Shown: positions 4,870-28,386 of the stretch, in pieces
Layout: each line of letters starts with the position of its first letter
Numbering within the stretch: the first letter of the stretch is position 1
Virus record (IMG/VR): IMGVR_UViG_2695420685_000015
DNA: 50,864 bases
Source: a virus
Lineage: Duplodnaviria; Heunggongvirae; Uroviricota; Caudoviricetes
Strand: one strand, 5' to 3'
Position numbers and translations under genes: made by a program
Notes under the pieces: generated by a model
The model's database searches: none
What the model was told of the DNA's origin: nothing
Seen by the model: the letters and a program-made list of their open reading frames with translations, nothing else

Positions 4870-4924
4870 ACGCTACAAATCCTTCGGCATGAATAAATAA
4901 AGGCCATAAGTTGTGGCCTTAAAT

Positions 4925-4978
4925 AAATTGTTTTCTACCTTTTCTTATTTGTGAAAATAACCACAACTAGAAAACAAC
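4925..4978 (+). promoter_or_regulatory. class-A promoter/operator copy 4
   Basis: Upstream half-palindrome AATTGTTTTCTACC, TGtGAAAAT -10-like, then AGAAAACAAC at 4969-4978. Confidence 0.5.
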
Positions 4979-4988
4979 GGAGTTAAGA

Positions 4989-8094: not shown

Positions 8095-8747
8095 TGACCA
8101 CCGTTAACAATAAGAAATGCTACCCAAGCGAGAAATATCTTAATGAGCTGATCACCAACATTGAGTTTGCTGCAAGGGCACCAGTTGAAGTCGTGAGAGC
8201 GATTGCAGCAGAGCTACAGAAGCACCGTAAGGCCTATGCCAATACAGCCGCATCTAAGGATGGTTGGATAAGCTGTAGTGAGCGAATGCCTGTAATTGGC
8301 GAGCTAAATTGGAGAACTAGTTTTCCTTTACTGGTTACGTGTGAGATCGGCGTTATACCTGCTTATTACGGCTTTGTGAGCGTTAATGGTAATAGGCATT
8401 ATGGCTTTATGGAGAGTCTTAAATACGGAGACGATAACGGCAACCATCCTCAAACTAATGAATATGGTCTGATTAGCAATGTCACACACTGGATGCCACT
8501 ACCAGAACGCCGCAGGAGTCGAACAGTGAATAATGCAGAGTTATTTCAGAAAATATCGGCTCTCGCGACTGAATGCCACGCTATAGCATCTGAGCTTGAT
8601 GTTGGCGATGAACGAACCGAGATGTTCGAAATATACAGTGTGCTGCGCAATCTCTGTCGGCGTGGCTACGCCACTCAAGTAGGGCGAATGACTAACCCAC
8701 TACTCTCATCCTGTGATGAGGATGACTCGGATGAGGATGACGAATGA
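8094..8747 (+). CDS. DUF551-like phage protein with poly-acidic C-terminal tail
   Basis: DGWISCSERMP resembles the DUF551 W-I-S-x-x-x-R-x-P core; C-terminus SCDEDDSDEDDE. Confidence 0.45.
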   Translation: MTTVNNKKCYPSEKYLNELITNIEFAARAPVEVVRAIAAELQKHRKAYANTAASKDGWISCSERMPVIGELNWRTSFPLLVTCEIGVIPAYYGFVSVNGNRHYGFMESLKYGDDNGNHPQTNEYGLISNVTHWMPLPERRRSRTVNNAELFQKISALATECHAIASELDVGDERTEMFEIYSVLRNLCRRGYATQVGRMTNPLLSSCDEDDSDEDDE

Positions 8748-9415
8748 TGCATAAATCAGTAGCCGGTGAGTTTCAGAAGGAAGTCGATAATACTACCGTT
8801 CTATTGGACGATATTTTAAGCATTCTCGCGCTTCTTGAGGCTGGCGATTGGTCAGAACATTGCACTAAAACGGAGTTAGGCGGTCGGCTTGAAAGAGAGA
8901 TTACACGACTTATTGGTGATGCGCAGGAAGCTACAGTCACTAGTTATGAGTTAATCGCTGAAGCCTGGCGTTTGATGGATGGACAAGATCCTAAAACCAG
9001 CGATTGGCATAGCAAGGCTTCGAAGTATTTAAATTCCGATAGGGTAGAAAAAGTTGATGATGTGAAACCGAAGCCAGTAGATCACGGTTTCCGCGATAAC
9101 TGCGAATGCTCTAGTTGCCAGACCACGGCCCGTATTTGTTCCGAATTGACAGATAAGTCCAGCCTAATCTACGAAGTTAATGTAGGCGGTAATACATGGG
9201 TCGAATGCACAAGAGCTGCATACGTAAGAGCAAAAGACAAGGGTGAATTAACCAGAGTTGTTGCCCATCACCCAAATAATGAGCTTAAAGATCACCAGAT
9301 TAGAGAACTGGTGAATGAGTTGCGGGATATTGCGGTTCAGTACCACGGAACGCAGCAATTGCGGGAGAAAATTGCCAGAGCAGTGAACAACTCAATTAGA
9401 TCAGAAAGTATGTAG
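8744..9415 (+). CDS. hypothetical protein
   Basis: ATG overlapping upstream stop; 223 aa. Confidence 0.55.
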   Translation: MMHKSVAGEFQKEVDNTTVLLDDILSILALLEAGDWSEHCTKTELGGRLEREITRLIGDAQEATVTSYELIAEAWRLMDGQDPKTSDWHSKASKYLNSDRVEKVDDVKPKPVDHGFRDNCECSSCQTTARICSELTDKSSLIYEVNVGGNTWVECTRAAYVRAKDKGELTRVVAHHPNNELKDHQIRELVNELRDIAVQYHGTQQLREKIARAVNNSIRSESM

Positions 9416-9517
9416 TCAATACAATAAAATGGCCCCATTTGGATGGGGCCGGTAACAACTAGCATTATGGGCGCTGGTTGACGTACTCAATGATCGCTTC
9501 GATGATTGCGAACATAG

Positions 9518-9825
9518 GCGGCACGATTTTGAAAAGTAAGTTAAGCACTATAGGCCTCACTTAGTTTTATCGCACCTAGCTGCAAATACCTTTGAGCTTG
9601 CCTTTGCAGTTGCAATATCTGTAGTCGCCAGATACTTACGGCACGATTTCGAGTTAAGGTAAGGTTTTAGAGTCACCAAAAACCTGGACTTAAATCTTCT
9701 TTGAGAACAACGATGTTTGGTAAATGGTCATTATTACCTAGCATGACGGCTCAACGTTTCTTGATGAATCCAGTACATTCGGTTAATCTTAGCTCAGTCG
9801 CCAGATACTTATGGCTCAGGAACAG
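9518..9825. repeat. intergenic direct repeats (CGCCAGATACTTAyGG and CGGCACGATTTyGAr)
   Basis: cggcacgattttgaaaag at 9519 and cggcacgatttcgag at 9639; gtcgccagatacttacgg at 9623 and gtcgccagatacttatgg at 9797. Confidence 0.5.
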
Positions 9826-9840
9826 AGGCGCAAACTCTGT

Positions 9841-9880
9841 TTCCTTTTAAAAAGCCCAGCCTAGTCAACTGGGCTTTTTT
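9841..9880. terminator. bidirectional rho-independent terminator
   Basis: aaaaagcccagcctagtcaactgggctttttt, A-run and T-run flanking a 7-bp GC stem. Confidence 0.7.
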
Positions 9881-10175
9881 AATGTCCGTTTTTAACCAAA
9901 TGTACCCACAATACCGCAACATCAGTGTCTTGCGAATTAAGATAGGATTTATAGAGACTATGTGCAAGTGCATAACTTTGTGGATAACTCGTAAAGGAAA
10001 AAGTGGTTTCCGCGGACATTAGTTCAGACAAGGAGTCTGGGAAAGTCAATGGGAAGTAAAAATTTGTTAAAAATAACGTTTGTTGGAATTGTATATATTT
10101 ATGCCTTTCAATAGTTAGCATCTTATTAACATCTTTTTTAAGAGATAGAGTTCAAAAATATATAGCTTCAACATG

Positions 10176-10195
10176 TACTGTATGCATATACAGTA
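10176..10195. promoter_or_regulatory. LexA (SOS) box
   Basis: tactgtatgcatatacagta matches TACTGT-(AT)4-ACAGTA consensus; 17 nt upstream of ATG 10212. Confidence 0.8.
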
Positions 10196-10211
10196 TTAAG
10201 AGGCGAGTATT

Positions 10212-10601
10212 ATGGGCTTCCCTTCTCCTGCGGCGGATTATGCTGAGAGCCGTATTTCTCTTGATCAGCAGATAATTAGACATCCTTCAGCGACCTACTT
10301 CATGAGGGCGGCTGATAGTCATCATCGTGAGGGAATATTGCAGGGTGCATTGCTGGTGGTCGATTCCTCACTGACTCCTGTTGATGGATCTCTTCTTGTA
10401 TGTGCTCTGGATGGGGAATATCGCGTAAAAAGATACCGGAAGTATCCACGTCAGCATCTGGAGGATTTAAGAACTGGTAAGAAGGAAGCATTGCCAAAGG
10501 ATGATGATGGATGCACGGGCAGCAATGCCGTGTTTGGTGTGATCACTCACATTATCAACGACGCAAGAAGTGGCGAGTTTGATGATTGTCCTGTGATGTA
10601 G
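10212..10601 (+). CDS. UmuD-prime-like (pre-cleaved UmuD / HumD-like) S24-family protein
   Basis: Starts MGFPSPAADY, corresponding to the UmuD-prime N-terminus after the Cys24-Gly25 cleavage site; HPSATYF and DS/K catalytic positions retained; C-terminus divergent; no umuC partner. Confidence 0.75.
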   Translation: MGFPSPAADYAESRISLDQQIIRHPSATYFMRAADSHHREGILQGALLVVDSSLTPVDGSLLVCALDGEYRVKRYRKYPRQHLEDLRTGKKEALPKDDDGCTGSNAVFGVITHIINDARSGEFDDCPVM

Positions 10602-10612
10602 GAGAACTGTTT

Positions 10613-10639
10613 AGGTGGTGCATTGCACCACCTTTTTAT
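10613..10639. terminator. bidirectional terminator between UmuD-prime-like gene and apbC
   Basis: aggtggtgcattgcaccacct hairpin then ttttta. Confidence 0.65.
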
Positions 10640-11739
10640 CACACTGCGCGGAATGCGATTTCGCCAGGTATTACTTCACCTTGCCAATACATTTGGGCAG
10701 CAACGCGATCTGCGAGGTCACGATAAATAGCCGTAAATTCGCTATCTGGACGACTAATAACGGTTGGTGTTCCGTTATCCAGATCTTCACGAAGAGAGAT
10801 ATGAAGTGGCATTTGGCCTAACAACTGCGTGTTGTATTTCTCGGCCAGTTTCTGTGCGCCACCGGTGCCAAAAATTGGCTCGTGATGACCGCAGTTACTG
10901 CAAATATGCACACTCATGTTTTCGACGATACCTAGTACCGGCACTTCGACTTTTTCGAACATCACAATGCCTTTCTTCGCATCGATCAGCGCGATGTCTT
11001 GCGGCGTAGTTACCACAACCGCACCAGTTACAGGAATGTTCTGCGCCAGCGTCAACTGAATATCACCAGTGCCCGGCGGCATATCGAGAACGAGATAGTC
11101 CAGATCAGGCCATAGAGTTTCCTGCAACATCTGCATCAGCGCCTTGCTGGCCATCGGTCCACGCCACACCATTGCATTGTCGTCGGTGACCAGATAACCA
11201 ATAGAGTTGGTTGCCAGGCCATGAGACATGATAGGTGCCATGTGAGTACCGTCAGGTGAGGTTGGACGTTGGTTTTCCGCGCCCAGCATGGTTGGAATTG
11301 ATGGACCATAGATATCGGCATCCAAAATACCAACTTTCGCACCTTCAGCAGCCAAAGCCAGTGCCAAGTTTACTGCTGTGGACGATTTGCCTACACCGCC
11401 CTTGCCTGAGCTTACGGCGATAATATTCTTAACACCATTAATGCCTGGTTGGTTTTTGACGCGCTTAAGCGTGGCAATGTTGTACGACAGCTTCCAGTCA
11501 ATAGCCTTTGCGCCAGTGATACGGAGCAGATCACCACTACATTGCTCTTTCAGGTCTTCAAAAGGCTTATTCCACACGAAAGGCATGATTAGTTCGACAT
11601 GCAGTGTGTCATCCATCAACGCAACATGGTGTAACGCTTTAAGCGTAGTCAGGTTGTGTTTCAGGGTTGGGTGCTGAAAATTAGCCAGCGTACCGGCTAC
11701 CATTGCTCTCAGGGCATCCGGCGATTTGGACTCGCTCAT
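10639..11739 (-). CDS. apbC: iron-sulfur cluster carrier ATPase ApbC/Mrp
   Basis: 366 aa; deviant Walker A SSGKGGVGKSSTAVNLA, C-terminal CSNCGH motif; AAGGAGA RBS; from memory near-identical to E. coli Mrp. Confidence 0.95.
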   Translation of the reverse strand: MSESKSPDALRAMVAGTLANFQHPTLKHNLTTLKALHHVALMDDTLHVELIMPFVWNKPFEDLKEQCSGDLLRITGAKAIDWKLSYNIATLKRVKNQPGINGVKNIIAVSSGKGGVGKSSTAVNLALALAAEGAKVGILDADIYGPSIPTMLGAENQRPTSPDGTHMAPIMSHGLATNSIGYLVTDDNAMVWRGPMASKALMQMLQETLWPDLDYLVLDMPPGTGDIQLTLAQNIPVTGAVVVTTPQDIALIDAKKGIVMFEKVEVPVLGIVENMSVHICSNCGHHEPIFGTGGAQKLAEKYNTQLLGQMPLHISLREDLDNGTPTVISRPDSEFTAIYRDLADRVAAQMYWQGEVIPGEIAFRAV

Positions 11740-11896
11740 CCCGTCTCCTTTATTTTAATTTGCGCAATTGTCGCCTTGTAGTGTACTCCAGCTGCGACAT
11801 TTAATCATTTATGAGAAATGCTGTTATCACATGGCAGACATAAGGCCATTTTGTTACTATCAAGCCCCTTTTCACTACAAAGAAGTAATGCCTACT

Positions 11897-13930
11897 ATGA
11901 CCCAAGTCGCGAAGAAAATTCTGGTGACGTGCGCGCTGCCGTACGCTAACGGCTCAATCCACCTCGGCCATATGCTGGAGCACATCCAGGCTGATGTCTG
12001 GGTTCGTTACCAGCGAATGCGCGGCCACGAGGTTAATTTCATCTGTGCCGACGATGCCCACGGTACGCCGATCATGCTGAAAGCACAGCAACTTGGTATC
12101 ACACCGGAGCAGATGATTGGCGAAATGAGTCAGGAACACCAGACTGATTTCGCAGGCTTTAACATCAGCTATGACAACTATCACTCGACGCACAGCGAAG
12201 AGAACCGTCAGTTGTCTGAGCTTATCTATACTCGCCTGAAAGAGAACGGTTTTATTAAAAATCGCACTATCTCTCAGTTGTACGACCCGGAAAAAGGCAT
12301 GTTCCTGCCGGATCGTTTTGTGAAAGGCACCTGCCCGAAATGTAAAGCGCCAGATCAATACGGCGATAACTGTGAAGTTTGCGGCGCGACCTACAGCCCG
12401 ACTGAACTGATCGAGCCGAAATCGGTGGTTTCTGGTGCTACCCCGGTAATGCGTGATTCTGAACACTTCTTCTTTGATCTGCCCTCTTTCAGCGAAATGT
12501 TGCAGGCATGGACCCGCAGCGGTGCGTTGCAGGAGCAGGTGGCAAACAAAATGCAGGAGTGGTTTGAATCTGGTCTGCAACAGTGGGATATCTCCCGCGA
12601 CGCACCTTACTTCGGTTTTGAAATTCCGAACGCGCCGGGTAAATATTTCTACGTCTGGCTGGACGCACCGATTGGCTACATGGGTTCCTTCAAGAATCTG
12701 TGCGACAAGCGCGGCGACACTACCAGCTTCGATGAATACTGGAAGAAAGACTCCACCGCCGAGCTGTACCACTTCATCGGTAAAGATATCGTTTACTTCC
12801 ACAGCCTGTTCTGGCCTGCCATGCTGGAAGGCAGCAACTTCCGCAAGCCGACCAACCTGTTTGTTCACGGCTATGTGACGGTGAACGGCGCGAAGATGTC
12901 CAAGTCTCGCGGCACCTTTATTAAAGCCAGCACCTGGTTGAATCATTTTGACGCTGACAGCCTGCGTTACTACTACACTGCGAAACTCTCTTCGCGCATT
13001 GATGATATCGATCTCAACCTGGAGGATTTCGTTCAGCGTGTGAATGCCGATATCGTGAACAAAGTGGTTAACCTGGCGTCCCGTAACGCTGGCTTTATCA
13101 ATAAGCGTTTTGACGGTGTGCTGGCAAGCGAGCTGGCTGACCCGCAGTTGTACAAAACCTTCACTGATGCCGCTGAAGTGATTGGTGAAGCGTGGGAAAG
13201 CCGCGAATTTGGTAAAGCTATCCGTGAAATCATGGCACTGGCTGACCTGGCTAACCGCTATGTCGACGAGCAGGCTCCTTGGGTAGTCGCAAAACAGGAA
13301 GGTCGCGATGCTGACCTGCAGGCGATTTGCTCAATGGGCATCAACCTGTTCCGCGTGCTGATGACTTACCTGAAACCGGTACTGCCGAAACTGACAGAAC
13401 GTGCGGAAGCATTCCTGAATACGGAACTGACCTGGGATGGCATCCAGCAACCGCTGCTGGGCCATAAAGTGAATCCGTTCAAAGCACTGTATAACCGTAT
13501 CGACATGAAACAGGTGGAAGCATTGGTGGAAGCGTCTAAAGAAGAAGTGAAAGCTACTGCCGCGCCAGTTACTGGCCCGCTGGCAGACGACCCGATTCAG
13601 GAAACCATCACCTTTGACGACTTTGCCAAAGTTGACCTGCGCGTGGCACTGATCGAAAACGCAGAGTTTGTTGAAGGTTCTGACAAACTGCTGCGCCTGA
13701 CGCTGGATCTCGGCGGTGAAAAACGCAATGTCTTCTCAGGCATCCGTTCTGCTTATCCAGACCCACAGGCACTGATTGGTCGTCACACCATTATGGTGGC
13801 TAACCTGGCTCCGCGTAAGATGCGCTTCGGCATCTCCGAAGGTATGGTGATGGCTGCTGGCCCCGGCGGGAAAGATATCTTCCTGTTAAGCCCGGATGCT
13901 GGTGCTAAACCTGGCCACCAGGTTAAGTAA
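11897..13930 (+). CDS. metG: methionyl-tRNA synthetase
   Basis: 677 aa from ATG 11897 (track start 11768 is an upstream extension); [15 protein letters not shown] motif, KMSKS motif, CPKC...CEVC zinc knuckles, C-terminal tRNA-binding domain; from memory ~99% identical to E. coli MetG. Confidence 0.97.
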
Positions 13931-13950
13931 TTAAGCAACCTCTGTTCGCA

Positions 13951-13978
13951 ATGCCCGGCAACACGCTGGGCATTTTTC
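13951..13978 (+). terminator. metG terminator
   Basis: atgcccggcaacacgctgggcat hairpin followed by ttttc. Confidence 0.55.
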
Positions 13979-14014
13979 ATATAGACACAATCCCTCCTGA
14001 TTTACACAAGCCCT

Positions 14015-14079
14015 AAAACAATTTGTTTTCTACCTTTTGTTGATTGAGATAATAAGCCACATAAGAAAACAAATTGTTT
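14015..14079 (+). promoter_or_regulatory. class-A promoter/operator copy 5 (both palindrome copies)
   Basis: AAAACAATTTGTTTT at 14015-14029, TGaGATAAT, then AGAAAACAAATTGTTT at 14064-14079. Confidence 0.55.
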
Positions 14080-14092
14080 CGGAGTGGTTGAA

Positions 14093-14392
14093 ATGTTGAA
14101 CATTACCCAAGCCTACCAGGTGGCATTGATCAGTTCATCTCATACATCAGAGGAAGATGCTCGCCGATTCATGATCGCAAGCAATGAGCTGGATTGGGTT
14201 TCACAAATTGATGGCGGTTGTATTGTCCACGCCGGGTTACAGGATGATGTCTGGAAAGACGACTTGCGTCGATATGGTATATCCGAAGGCGCGATTGCTA
14301 ACATTCAGAAAGTACTTGATGTAGGCTTTGACTCTGTACATTTTGATTGTGGTGCGCCGATCGTTGAAGGGCTTGAGTGCTGGTGTTGGTAG
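14093..14392 (+). CDS. hypothetical protein
   Basis: ATG 14093 with GGAG RBS (track start 14084 is GTG); 99 aa. Confidence 0.5.
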   Translation: MLNITQAYQVALISSSHTSEEDARRFMIASNELDWVSQIDGGCIVHAGLQDDVWKDDLRRYGISEGAIANIQKVLDVGFDSVHFDCGAPIVEGLECWCW

Positions 14393-14523
14393 AGTGTATA
14401 AGCGGATCAATGAGTTACGGAAACAGTTAATAATGAGGAGCTTGTAATAAGCTGTATACCCTAGAAAAGCTAGACTAGGGAATAAAATGACGTGAAACTG
14501 GGCGAGACAGTAAATAATTCCGA

Positions 14524-15753
14524 ATGATAATTGAACAAATAACCCCTTGCTCGGAGCTTGGAATGACTGATACCGCTTTTTCAAAATCGTTACAAAAAGA
14601 AGTCGATCCTGAGCAGTACTTGGCGCTAAAGAATTTAGATGACAGCTCGGTTCATGCTATTGCCCGTGACGATATCATCTGCCCCATTTGCAAAGTTGGA
14701 GGTGGTTCGTTCGTTAGAGCCACTAGGAATGGTGGCTATCACAAGAAGGCGCATTTCAGATTTACCGGTGAAGATGGTCAAGGCCATCATCCATCATGTG
14801 ATTTCTATGGAGATAGACTAACATCTGAGGTGAAGCAGCACCTTGTCTCATTCACAAAAGATCGAACAAAGTATTCGCAGGTAATACGAAAGCTGGTCTG
14901 TGCCGGCATACAGGAAGGGATATTTACTCAAGAAAAAATGTGGCAGATGAGGGAATGGTTCTTCAATAAGCGAAAGGATTCCACATTTGAAATATGGTTA
15001 GAAAGCGAGCATTTAGACTGGCTTTATTATATTAGTGGGTTACGTGATGCATATCTAGCATGGACAACTCCTGATATTCTACCTTTCGCGCCCATTCAGG
15101 TTACTGTGCCTGGTTTTTCTTGGAAGCGTGCGATTGACAAAGAGGTGCTAAGAGTTCACATCAAGACTCTCCAGCAATTGCGTGAAATTTCAGTCTCACA
15201 TAGAGACATTGCTGTAATCTTAGAACACATAAACAATAATCGTGACCGCACAATTCTCGATCCATCGCATTTGGAGGACGAGATAAGTAAGACCTGTAAG
15301 CTTACTAGTTTTGTGATGGGCAATTACATTGAGTTTCAGACAAAAACGGTTAGCGACAGAGCATACGGGGAAGCTAAGTTTCTGGCATTTGCAGCACTTT
15401 TGTTGTTCGTGTCAGATTGGGACCTCAACATTGCTATTGGTAAGTTTTCTAAGATTGCCAGAGTGAAGGAGGTTGATGACATGCTGGCTGGTAATTTCAT
15501 TGGTCTTAATCCTTACTTCCGATACGACCTGGCTAATGCAGTGAAGAGATTGCAGGATAACTGGCCGATTGAATACCAAGAGTTGGAGCATTGGAATGTT
15601 GAGAAATCCATGCGTGACGCATATGAAAAGTGGCGTGCGACAGAGCCTGAATTCGCTCCACCCCTATTGCCAGACTTGTATATTGCCAAACATGAGAAAG
15701 AAGTCGCACAAGACGAGCAAGTCAGGCAGTGGATTAAGAACGGGGATGTTTGA
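14524..15753 (+). CDS. hypothetical protein with Cys/His zinc-ribbon-like motif
   Basis: 409 aa; CPICK...HHPSCDFY cluster; start could instead be ATG 14563. Confidence 0.55.
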   Translation: MIIEQITPCSELGMTDTAFSKSLQKEVDPEQYLALKNLDDSSVHAIARDDIICPICKVGGGSFVRATRNGGYHKKAHFRFTGEDGQGHHPSCDFYGDRLTSEVKQHLVSFTKDRTKYSQVIRKLVCAGIQEGIFTQEKMWQMREWFFNKRKDSTFEIWLESEHLDWLYYISGLRDAYLAWTTPDILPFAPIQVTVPGFSWKRAIDKEVLRVHIKTLQQLREISVSHRDIAVILEHINNNRDRTILDPSHLEDEISKTCKLTSFVMGNYIEFQTKTVSDRAYGEAKFLAFAALLLFVSDWDLNIAIGKFSKIARVKEVDDMLAGNFIGLNPYFRYDLANAVKRLQDNWPIEYQELEHWNVEKSMRDAYEKWRATEPEFAPPLLPDLYIAKHEKEVAQDEQVRQWIKNGDV

Positions 15754-15884
15754 GTGTAATTAGCTTAATCAATCAGTTGATAATGGCGGTCACAATTTGA
15801 TTCTTTTCTATAAGAATCCGTTGATCGCCACTACTCTTCTTCCATACCTGCAATCACACCTTTAAATATCAATAGGTTAACGTT

Positions 15885-16640
15885 GTTTATACCAATAATA
15901 AAACAACTAAATAACAGATCAACGAAACGTCAACGCTTTCACCCGATTTGGTCTAAAAAATTGACGTATTCACACATCACTTCTTATACCCGTAATTCTA
16001 CGCAGCAGACAGCGCCACAGCGTCCAATTTTCACCACAGACGACCCAACACACTACCAACAAAAACACACGCTCAAAATCACTCCCATTGCGTTACATAA
16101 CTATATAAACAACTTATTTTCAGCTATAACAAAACAACTAAATAACACACATGCCATTCCCCAAAACAACCAACCTCTTTATGGCAGGCTACCGAAAAGA
16201 CCCACCTCTTCTCCCCAGGCTACCGGACAGCCAACCTAACTTTCACAGGCAATCCGAAAACATTCATACGCGCGATACCCACGACACGCCATTCCCCAAA
16301 CAGCGAAGAAACACCAGAATCACTGAAAACCCAACGAAGCCTGTAACCGCAAGGATTCTCTCAATCCCAAAAGACACGAAACATAACAATCACGGGAAAC
16401 GCCATTACCCAATACACGAATAACTACAAAAGCCCTTCACACACTCCAGACAAACAACTCAAACACAATAACGAAAGGATTCGCCCACCTGCCATTACTC
16501 CATACATGGAGAAGAACAATCACCAAAACGACGAGAACACCCCATAGAAGAACCACCGCAAAACGAACGAAACCACATACACCGACAGAGAAAACAACAC
16601 ACCCAATTCACCAACAGAAATAGTCGCCGTATAGAACATT
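15885..16640 (+). other. A+C-rich strand-asymmetric ORF-free tract (candidate noncoding RNA or structural DNA element)
   Basis: About 75-80% A+C on the + strand over ~760 bp in sampled 60-nt blocks; no ATG-initiated ORF; internal short repeats (aaaacaactaaataaca twice, ccattccccaaa twice). Confidence 0.6.
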
Positions 16641-16736
16641 CTGGAAGGAGTGAGCATTAACGCCTATAGAGAGGTTGAGACAGATAAAACACAACATGCA
16701 TAGCGAAGAAGCCAGGTATGTATAAGTGGGGAGGGA

Positions 16737-16759
16737 AGGAGGGGTGTCGCCTCCTTTTT
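16737..16759 (+). terminator. rho-independent terminator downstream of A+C-rich tract
   Basis: aggaggggtgtcgcctcct hairpin followed by tttt. Confidence 0.55.
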
Positions 16760-16822
16760 CGTATTTATTCAACTCCTGATTTTATCCCCCGTAACACCCC
16801 TACGGTCAGCCTTCGGTCCATA

Positions 16823-17740: not shown

Positions 17741-17776
17741 TGGTATTATTTACGCCATTGAGAAAACAAGTTGTTT
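17741..17776 (+). promoter_or_regulatory. class-A promoter/operator copy 7
   Basis: TGgTATTAT then AGAAAACAAGTTGTTT at 17761-17776. Confidence 0.55.
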
Positions 17777-17787
17777 ACGGAGTTGTG

Positions 17788-18658: not shown

Positions 18659-18667
18659 ATGCCCGAT

Positions 18668-18730
18668 AACAATTTGTTTTCTGCCTTTATCTCGCTGCGA
18701 TAATTACAACAACAAGAAAACAACATGTTT
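18668..18730 (+). promoter_or_regulatory. class-A promoter/operator copy 8 (both palindrome copies)
   Basis: AACAATTTGTTTT at 18668-18680, TGcGATAAT, AGAAAACAACATGTTT at 18715-18730. Confidence 0.55.
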
Positions 18731-19182: not shown

Positions 19183-19215
19183 GATAATTAACACAAACAA
19201 GAAAACAATTTGTTA
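19183..19215 (+). promoter_or_regulatory. class-A promoter/operator copy 9
   Basis: GATAAT at 19183-19188 then AGAAAACAATTTGTTA at 19200-19215. Confidence 0.55.
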
Positions 19216-19235
19216 TTTACGATAAGGAATTAATC

Positions 19236-28313: not shown

Positions 28314-28355
28314 AGAAAACAAGTTGGTTAGAAAATGCAGTAAACAAGTTGTTTT
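28314..28355 (+). promoter_or_regulatory. class-A motif pair upstream of terminase small subunit
   Basis: AGAAAACAAGTTGGTT at 28314-28329 and AAACAAGTTGTTTT at 28342-28355. Confidence 0.5.
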
Positions 28356-28386
28356 AGAGCGCATGGACGCGCTCTGTGTGTTTTAG
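28356..28386 (+). terminator. promoter-proximal terminator-like hairpin in terS leader
   Basis: agagcgcatggacgcgctct hairpin followed by gtgtgtttt, about 10 nt before ATG 28395. Confidence 0.45.

Follow-up and report, generated by a model that had tools for sequence, protein, structure and literature searches.

How do two bacterial housekeeping genes, one of them encoding an essential aminoacyl-tRNA synthetase (aaRS), come to lie between arrays of phage-type genes? The question is raised by a stretch of 50,864 nucleotides (nt) from the virus record IMGVR_UViG_2695420685_000015 (Caudoviricetes), hereafter referred to as the window, in which apbC and metG occupy the interval 10602-14020. The initial annotation of this interval was confirmed as regards its layout: both genes are intact and divergent, with humD on their left and an operator-flanked phage promoter on their right. 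Four origins had been proposed for it, namely a phage that captured a host segment, two related elements inserted on either side of a chromosomal locus, a prophage-mediated rearrangement and an assembly chimera. Our analysis pointed to the first of these, and the best overall explanation, to which we assign a probability of about 0.85, is a phage-plasmid carrying a host-derived apbC-metG cassette as the cargo of a slot, inherited and packaged with the element and providing a moron-type benefit.

Host element and borders of the apbC-metG cassette

Nucleotide comparison identified the window as a portion of a temperate E. coli phage-plasmid that belongs to the SSU5 supergroup and, within it, to the Cyrano/pLF82 lineage. 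Cyrano showed 95.9% identity over window positions 8600-16000, and a methionyl-tRNA synthetase (MetRS) is annotated in the Cyrano record too. The phages Cyrano, PhiR41_1 and CMS-2020a, all three of which carry metG, and many circular plasmids of 105-115 kb were colinear with 8600-16000 at 96-99% identity with both cassette junctions covered, thus supporting the capture of a host segment encoding an aaRS by a phage. Circular E. coli plasmids of about 110 kb reached 99% identity to this region. The closest relative was plasmid P2 of E. coli SP15 (SP15_P2), which carries the interval 10602-14020 at 99.9% identity and whose fetched 43-kb stretch matching the window contains ParB genes, terminase, head genes and nucleotide-metabolism genes (nrdB/thyA). 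The 96% colinearity with Cyrano, together with the partition and structural/packaging genes of the 99.9% relative, places the element in the SSU5 supergroup. Cyrano is an SSU5-like siphovirus that makes virions and is maintained in strain LF82 with about 5.5 plasmid copies per cell (Misson et al. 2023, PMC9928086). Relatives of the element have been deposited as circular plasmids.

The left junction, comprising the 3' end of humD, a terminator and the 3' end of apbC, was detected in 224 of 5426 complete E. coli genomes (about 4%). It occurred at 228 places, 222 of them on plasmids, nearly all of about 110 kb, and 6 on chromosomes. In PLSDB, about 190 plasmids of E. coli, E. albertii and S. sonnei carry the whole interval 10602-14020 at 95.6-99.9% identity, with S. 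sonnei plasmids of 108-111 kb showing 96.1-96.6%. The exact MetG protein was retrieved in 3442 indexed blocks of the assembly collection; all ten of the places shown had a phage-plasmid context, and nine displayed the full order humD - apbC - metG - DUF5983.

These distributions bear on the idea that the window represents a chromosomal apbC-metG locus caught between two prophage-like insertions, or an assembly chimera, as the sight of chromosomal genes between phage genes suggests at first glance and as the six chromosomal left junctions might seem to support. Identical junctions were found in phage records and in hundreds of circular plasmids of 105-115 kb, and their recurrence in hundreds of independent complete assemblies excludes a chimera. 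The plasmid location of 222 of the 228 left junctions also speaks against two elements flanking a chromosomal locus and against a prophage-mediated rearrangement, both being further contradicted by the phage-plasmid context of MetG, with humD and apbC beside it in nine of the ten places shown. The chromosomal junction matches listed, SJC33 and Ec-U3, are partial, reaching only through humD and the terminator into the first 64 nt of apbC, and the one inspected, SJC33, lies within a lambdoid prophage. As chromosome homology moreover stops exactly at both stop codons of the cassette, the probability left to this idea is close to nil.

The SJC33 prophage (NZ_CP080255.1, 1467142-1467324) encodes Ral, Kil, RecT and DNA polymerase III theta and contains humD together with the phage-plasmid terminator and 64 nt left over from the 3' end of a phage-plasmid-type apbC. 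The humD-cassette junction was thus moved into an integrated prophage and truncated afterwards. Two contigs of more than 1 Mb (VCZV01000001.1, 4.89 Mb, and CP043541.1, 5.57 Mb) contain the cassette together with its neighbours, humD being missing beside apbC in the former, and may represent chromosomally integrated phage-plasmids or misassemblies. Integration through metG homology was considered and rejected for both contigs, since phage-plasmid genes lie on both sides of the cassette.

In a collection of 50,697 phage records, full-length MetRS occurred only in four Cyrano-like phage-plasmids, in a few large phages (Pseudomonas phage Y5, Acinetobacter MD-2021a, Microcystis MaAM05 and 630-kb phages) and in some unverified contigs. 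SSU5 and pHCM2 records were absent from both the nucleotide and the MetG-protein matches in this collection, and by sequence matching the cassette seems to be restricted to the Escherichia/Shigella clade. An unverified 5.3-kb contig named 'Salmonella phage S.Kent 1-2-1' was evaluated as an independent capture in Salmonella and discarded as host DNA, not a phage cassette; it is colinear with the Salmonella chromosome past metG and 92-96% identical to S. arizonae.

The borders of the cassette were then defined. BLASTN analysis of 10602-14020 and its flanks, proposed as a check in the initial annotation, returned chromosome homology within the cassette only, the flanks matching phages and phage-plasmids. 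From blastn and junction alignments, the captured block homologous to enterobacterial chromosomes extends over 10643-13931. In the alignment with E. coli K-12, homology starts at the apbC stop codon and ends two bases past the metG stop codon, and in blastn comparisons with K-12 and 80 Enterobacterales chromosomal loci it always started within 10634-10643 and ended within 13928-13937. The GC content is 50.9% in the cassette and 44-45% in the flanks. The K-12 gene order is yehE - mrp/apbC - metG - yehF, so yehE had been correctly named as the chromosomal neighbour of apbC, and its place is taken here by humD, identified by a HumD equivalog match. The suggested search for direct repeats at the junctions gave a negative result, as neither direct repeats nor target-site duplications nor att-like repeats were detected at the cassette borders by a repeat search.

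Intrinsic terminators are located at both ends of the cassette. The first (10613-10638, + strand), between the stop codons of humD and apbC, consists of a 9-pair stem with 6 GC pairs followed by TTTTTAT; it has no homology to K-12 or to the related plasmid pTB212 and thus moves with the cassette. The second (13950-13984, + strand), after metG, consists of a 10-pair stem followed by a T-run and has no homology to the region 3' of K-12 metG or to pTB212. Plasmid pTB212 (NZ_CP033252.1) has the same backbone as far as the stop codon of humD and once more from about position 14000 of the window, and in between carries, in place of apbC-metG, a DUF4145 gene (79505-80248) with a different terminator of its own. 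The presence of an alternative cargo between the same borders indicates that the interval 10602-14020 is almost exactly a variable cargo slot, which is bounded by the stop codon of humD and by the repressor-controlled early promoter that follows, and is filled by the 3.3-kb cassette in this lineage. A type I restriction-modification system is found close to the DUF4145 gene of pTB212. Cyrano and the window are aligned over 81% coverage only and have different accessory genes on either side of the cassette.

Gene products, selection and expression

The apbC gene, also named mrp (10639-11739, - strand), encodes an intact 366-residue P-loop NTPase acting as an iron-sulfur (Fe-S) cluster carrier. 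It belongs to the ApbC/Mrp family by an equivalog match (NCBIfam NF008669, 759 bits against a cutoff of 348) and by Pfam PF10609, and it has kept the Walker A motif of deviant type, GKGGVGKS, and the CXXC motif, CSNC. The metG gene (11897-13930, + strand) encodes an intact MetRS of 677 residues, a class I aaRS of the dimeric enterobacterial type, assigned by a full-length NCBIfam equivalog match (NF001100, 1019.8 bits against a cutoff of 587, residues 4-677) and matching the E. coli MetRS chains 1f4l and 1qqt of the PDB with E=0. The protein contains the HLGH (21-24) and KMSKS (333-337) motifs, the zinc knuckles CPKC...CEVC (145-161) and the C-terminal tRNA-binding/dimerisation domain (PF01588 at 581-674, TIGR00399 at 543-677). 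It differs from the K-12 enzyme by eight conservative substitutions (S112T, S151A, S275T, V276T, S319T, V442I, R538K and A554T), four of which also occur in another Escherichia species.

The pattern of substitutions argues that both ApbC and MetG are maintained by strong purifying selection, since change is almost exclusively synonymous. Between the window and Cyrano, 82 synonymous and 1 nonsynonymous differences were counted in metG and 31 and 0 in apbC, and the ratio of nonsynonymous to synonymous divergence (dN/dS) was 0.02 for each gene against K-12 and 0.003-0.025 for the two genes between phage-plasmids. In addition, one and the same MetG protein is common to the window, S. sonnei p38 and E. 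albertii 153 across a nucleotide divergence of 4.3-4.5%, and five of the six phage-plasmid records fetched (from E. coli, E. albertii and S. sonnei) list their ApbC under a single accession, WP_000004356.1. From these dN/dS values between phage-plasmids and an identity of about 99% to E. coli MetRS, we infer that the phage-plasmid enzyme is active in aminoacylation. An RNA-gene scan of the whole window returned no tRNA genes and no Rfam families, so the enzyme has no phage tRNA-Met partner here.

The close similarity of the two enzymes also bears on the speculation that the extra MetRS provides target protection or acts as a counter-toxin against agents directed at MetRS or Met-tRNA, for example inhibitors of the enzyme or AtaT/KacT-type GNAT toxins, which acetylate aminoacyl-tRNA. 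A plasmid-borne second aaRS is a classic resistance route, MupA/MupB models were among the distant profile matches, and a KacT toxin-antitoxin pair of Cyrano is expressed in lysogeny. However, as only eight conservative positions differ from the host enzyme, the protein is not a resistant variant and protection could arise from dosage only, which makes this role improbable in our opinion.

The two genes are separated by a divergent promoter region of 157 nt (11740-11896), which was aligned with that of K-12. The stretch of about 65 nt that adjoins metG, with a TACTAT hexamer in it, hardly differs from K-12, and the apbC-proximal part is diverged, with indels and an insertion of about 10 nt upstream of the conserved hexamer. 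The earlier description of a native intergenic region is thus valid for the part adjoining metG but not for the diverged remainder. Across ten phage-plasmids the region is almost invariant. A putative LexA box within it was rejected by eye, as its CTG-N11-CAG arrangement has the wrong spacing.

A palindromic core, AACAAnTTGTTTTC, occurs at 21 sites in the window against 0.9 expected (for example at 568-584, 1297-1310, 2011-2024, 4922-4935, 14014-14078, 17762-17778, 18665-18729, 19201-19217 and 28315-28356). The sites are often paired around an extended -10-like TGnGATAAT just 5' of accessory-gene arrays, and the core is probably the operator of a phage-plasmid repressor controlling these arrays. 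The right border of the slot is formed by such a phage promoter module (14014-14079, + strand), in which the operator pair, a 16-nt inverted repeat with 100% complementarity (I5; 14016-14031 and 14064-14079), flanks TGAGATAAT. A motif scan of the window returned no AACAAnTTGTTTTC operator motif inside the cassette, intergenic region included.

In the LF82 transcriptome, Cyrano apbC was expressed 9-fold over the prophage background and appears in the list of morons as 'septum site-determining protein'. Cyrano metG reached about 16 fragments per kilobase per million (fpkm), about 1.6-fold the background, a value that may be distorted or under-counted because the chromosomal copy is 94% identical. 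The cassette may be a moron: it possesses its own intergenic promoter region and its own terminators, contains no operator motif and, in Cyrano, is transcribed at these levels, which are well over background for apbC and only slightly so for metG.

The phage-plasmid-borne metG is a feature already described, which reportedly gives rise to subpopulations that survive antibiotics, and the cassette is annotated in public records. According to the summary in PMC12452169 of the work of Tam et al. (2024, medRxiv 10.1101/2024.10.27.24316207), multidrug resistance in S. sonnei is associated with multiple, highly variable phage-plasmid metG copies, and expression of phage-plasmid metG generates a subpopulation predisposed to acquire resistance to third-generation cephalosporins.

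A different function would be that of an auxiliary set for the lytic cycle, in which extra MetRS, charging initiator and elongator tRNA-Met, and the Fe-S carrier would raise translation or metabolism during phage replication. This role would agree with the early/accessory location beside many nucleotide-metabolism genes (nrd, thyA and dhfr on the same element), with the low transcription of metG in the uninduced lysogen and with the MetRS genes of the few large phages listed above. Nevertheless, the cassette has kept a promoter region of chromosomal type and lacks the phage operator, apbC is transcribed in the lysogen well over background, and the reported phenotype belongs to lysogens. A lytic role is therefore unlikely, although we regard it as more credible than the protective one.

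Possible discordant histories of apbC and metG

The two genes of the cassette show different degrees of divergence from their chromosomal counterparts. Nucleotide identity to K-12 is 94.1% for metG, with a synonymous divergence (dS) of 0.30, about the value between K-12 and another Escherichia species. For apbC it is 81.3%, with a saturated dS of about 1.8, Escherichia being as distant as Citrobacter. The apbC/metG distance ratio was 3.13 for the phage-plasmid versus K-12, and 2775 pairs of Enterobacterales chromosomes used as a baseline gave a median of 1.32 and a maximum of 1.82. In neighbour-joining trees, the phage-plasmid metG fell within Escherichia, and the phage-plasmid apbC was placed as sister to Escherichia on a very long branch.

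Among ten phage-plasmids, metG showed 2-3 times as many variable sites per 100 nt as apbC. The metG alleles of phage-plasmids are up to 6.5% apart, and 55% of their informative site pairs failed the four-gamete test. In the sibling EC08 p2, apbC and the 5' end of metG are identical to those of the window, and metG contains a 575-nt tract with 3 mismatches to K-12 (15781-16355 of locus L002, corresponding to window positions 12380-12954). About 3000 E. coli records match this tract at 99% identity or more, which is evidence of gene conversion between chromosomal and phage-plasmid metG. Together, the discordant divergence and the EC08 p2 tract suggest that metG undergoes gene conversion with the host gene. 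The divergence from Escherichia of about 19% for apbC versus 6% for metG, with metG mosaic and hypervariable among phage-plasmids, is possibly a new observation.

A tentative reading of these data, which we hold at somewhat less than even odds, is that apbC and metG have discordant histories, apbC recording an old capture equidistant from Escherichia, Salmonella and Citrobacter, and metG being replaced over and over, through gene conversion, by sequence from the chromosomal metG of one Escherichia/Shigella host after another. A possible alternative is that the cassette came from an unsampled donor or was assembled from two donors. No donor with more than 88.3% identity over the cassette was present among the 80 Enterobacterales chromosomal loci listed, none of which extends into the flanking terminators, in a comparison that left out the chromosomes of E. 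albertii, E. fergusonii and E. marmotae. The record CP170191.1 ('Enterobacter hormaechei strain B56') has apbC and metG 100% identical in nucleotide sequence to those of E. coli K-12 and is probably mislabelled or an E. coli K-12 derivative.

The recombining, mosaic metG, the E. coli chromosomal tract of EC08 p2 and the occurrence of the phage-plasmid on some contigs of more than 1 Mb might also indicate that the cassette serves as a stretch of chromosomal homology for recombination, i.e. for integration, mobilisation or metG allele exchange, with proteins of little importance. The extreme purifying selection (dN/dS 0.003-0.025) is unexpected for a mere homology handle, apbC (81%) is too diverged for such a use, and the two long contigs show no integration at metG. 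We consider this use of the cassette very unlikely.

In the explanation that we favour, that of a phage-plasmid with apbC and metG as its slot cargo, the cassette would have been captured once, long ago, from an enterobacterial chromosome by illegitimate recombination. Repeated gene conversion with the chromosomal metG of Escherichia would since have homogenised its metG, in addition to recombination between phage-plasmids, and apbC, too diverged to recombine, would have been left out of this process. The two genes would be transcribed divergently from their own intergenic promoters, each with its own terminator and outside phage operator control, and would be inherited and packaged with the phage-plasmid. 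The lysogen would gain a second dose, at plasmid copy number, of a wild-type-like MetRS and of the ApbC Fe-S carrier. MetRS is a homodimer, and the effect might be exerted through altered MetRS dosage or heterodimer composition and not through a resistant enzyme. The selected benefit would be a host phenotype, as for a moron, and not a lytic-cycle function.

Several points weigh against this explanation. The tract 13030-13660 of the window metG is at most about 94% identical to any E. coli chromosome and reaches at least 99% in 8 records only; E. coli was rejected as its source, all 5422 chromosomal matches falling in the 90-95% band, and recent conversion with E. coli is consequently shown for the siblings only. 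For ApbC, the chromosomal proteins that come nearest are those of Salmonella, E. coli and Citrobacter types, each at 94-95% identity, so that no apbC donor is singled out, and no closer chromosomal ApbC was retrieved from 5.8 billion proteins, a set in which clustering at 90% could hide one. As Cyrano metG is transcribed weakly in LB stationary phase, a large dosage effect is only a possibility. The antibiotic-survival phenotype is taken from second-hand summaries of Tam et al. Finally, persistence is raised by reduced MetRS function (Wood et al. 2024), whereas the phage-plasmid supplies an extra, wild-type-like copy.

The finding describes a temperate phage-plasmid, detected in about 4% of the complete E. 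coli genomes and also occurring in epidemic S. sonnei, that spreads a second essential aaRS linked to antibiotic survival. For annotation, it teaches that chromosomal-looking genes in this context are genuine cargo and not misassembly. Both the discordant divergence of the two genes and the signs of exchange with the chromosomal metG are relevant to the evolution of such cargo, and caution is needed in that metG variation on these elements should not be taken as adaptive mutation. If metG is continually overwritten, the phage-plasmid would act as a shuttle through which chromosomes exchange alleles of a gene essential for translation, and the 'highly variable' phage-plasmid metG would be a product of recombination instead of adaptive mutation.

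Flanking features and comparison with known systems

The left border of the slot is formed by humD (10212-10601, + strand), encoding a phage UmuD'-like translesion subunit. The 129-residue protein has the pre-truncated length of UmuD' and belongs to the HumD equivalog family (NCBIfam NF051876, 219.8 bits against a cutoff of 120). A LexA (SOS) box lies upstream (10176-10195, + strand; TACTGTATGCATATACAGTA, fitting CTG-N10-CAG), in a region 83-85% identical to the humD region of P1, P7 and D6, where it is labelled 'LexA regulated function'. The 800-nt noncoding region 5' of humD (9416-10211) contains GTCGCCAGATACTTA twice, at 9624 and at 9797, along with two hairpins resembling terminators. From 9963 onwards it matches the humD region of P1, P7 and SJ46 at 83-85% identity, which indicates module exchange between the SSU5-type and P1-type families of phage-plasmids.

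On the right, a DUF5983 gene (14093-14392, + strand; Pfam PF19419) is the first of the downstream accessory array. The promoter/operator module at the right slot border has a second copy at 4922-4985 (+ strand; 81% identity to the 14015 copy over 62 nt) and a third full copy at 18665-18729 (+ strand; 77.5% identity over 80 nt), so that the window holds at least three homologous modules (4922, 14014 and 18665) with 78-81% mutual identity. The modules at 4925 and 14015 had been described as near-identical; they are indeed homologues, but at 81% over 62 nt they are not near-identical. Further to the right, at 15950-16760 (+ strand), a noncoding A/C-rich stretch of about 700 nt (40% A, 33% C, 12% G and 15% T over 15990-16640) is preceded on its 5' side by a promoter-like site, TTGACG-17-TTATAC, and ends on its 3' side with a GC hairpin and T-run near 16735-16762. 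It carries no annotation in Cyrano, EC08 p2 or SP15_P2, and may be a long A/C-rich noncoding RNA.

Among known elements, Cyrano (pLF82; OV696614; PMC9928086) has the same order humD - apbC - metG - DUF5983 at 96% identity, but its apbC is annotated as 'septum site-determining protein MinD' and its metG is not discussed in that paper. The type members of the supergroup, Salmonella phage SSU5 and pHCM2, share the same backbone family (Cyrano and SSU5 are 81% identical over 65% coverage) and differ in that the cassette is apparently confined to Escherichia/Shigella. The S. sonnei element with the reported metG phenotype is named pWPMR2; in a 2025 preprint (bioRxiv 10.1101/2025.09.12.675607), pWPMR2-like SSU5-supergroup phage-plasmids are described in many S. 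sonnei isolates and also in E. coli CC131, CC23 and CC73. Judging from S. sonnei plasmids of the same clade, the S. sonnei members of the window's lineage appear to include pWPMR2. Like the element studied here, pWPMR2 is an SSU5-supergroup phage-plasmid with an additional metG; the MetG of S. sonnei p38 equals that of the window, and the 'highly variable' metG attributed to pWPMR2 in the summaries fits the hypervariable, mosaic metG found among these phage-plasmids. The closest relatives of the window are nevertheless E. coli plasmids (SP15_P2, 99.9%) and not S. sonnei ones.

Jumbo and other large phages also encode MetRS, but theirs are distant homologues (24-66% identity) of probably virulent phages, whereas the present enzyme is host-like, is accompanied by its chromosomal neighbour and resides on a temperate phage-plasmid. 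MupA/IleRS2 offers a further parallel, in that an essential aaRS is likewise duplicated by way of a mobile element. Those enzymes, however, are highly diverged and insensitive to the inhibitor, and the phage-plasmid MetRS, with its eight conservative substitutions with respect to K-12, is not a resistance-type aaRS of this kind. As it is about 99% identical to the host enzyme, any effect would derive from dosage, regulation or subtle variants.

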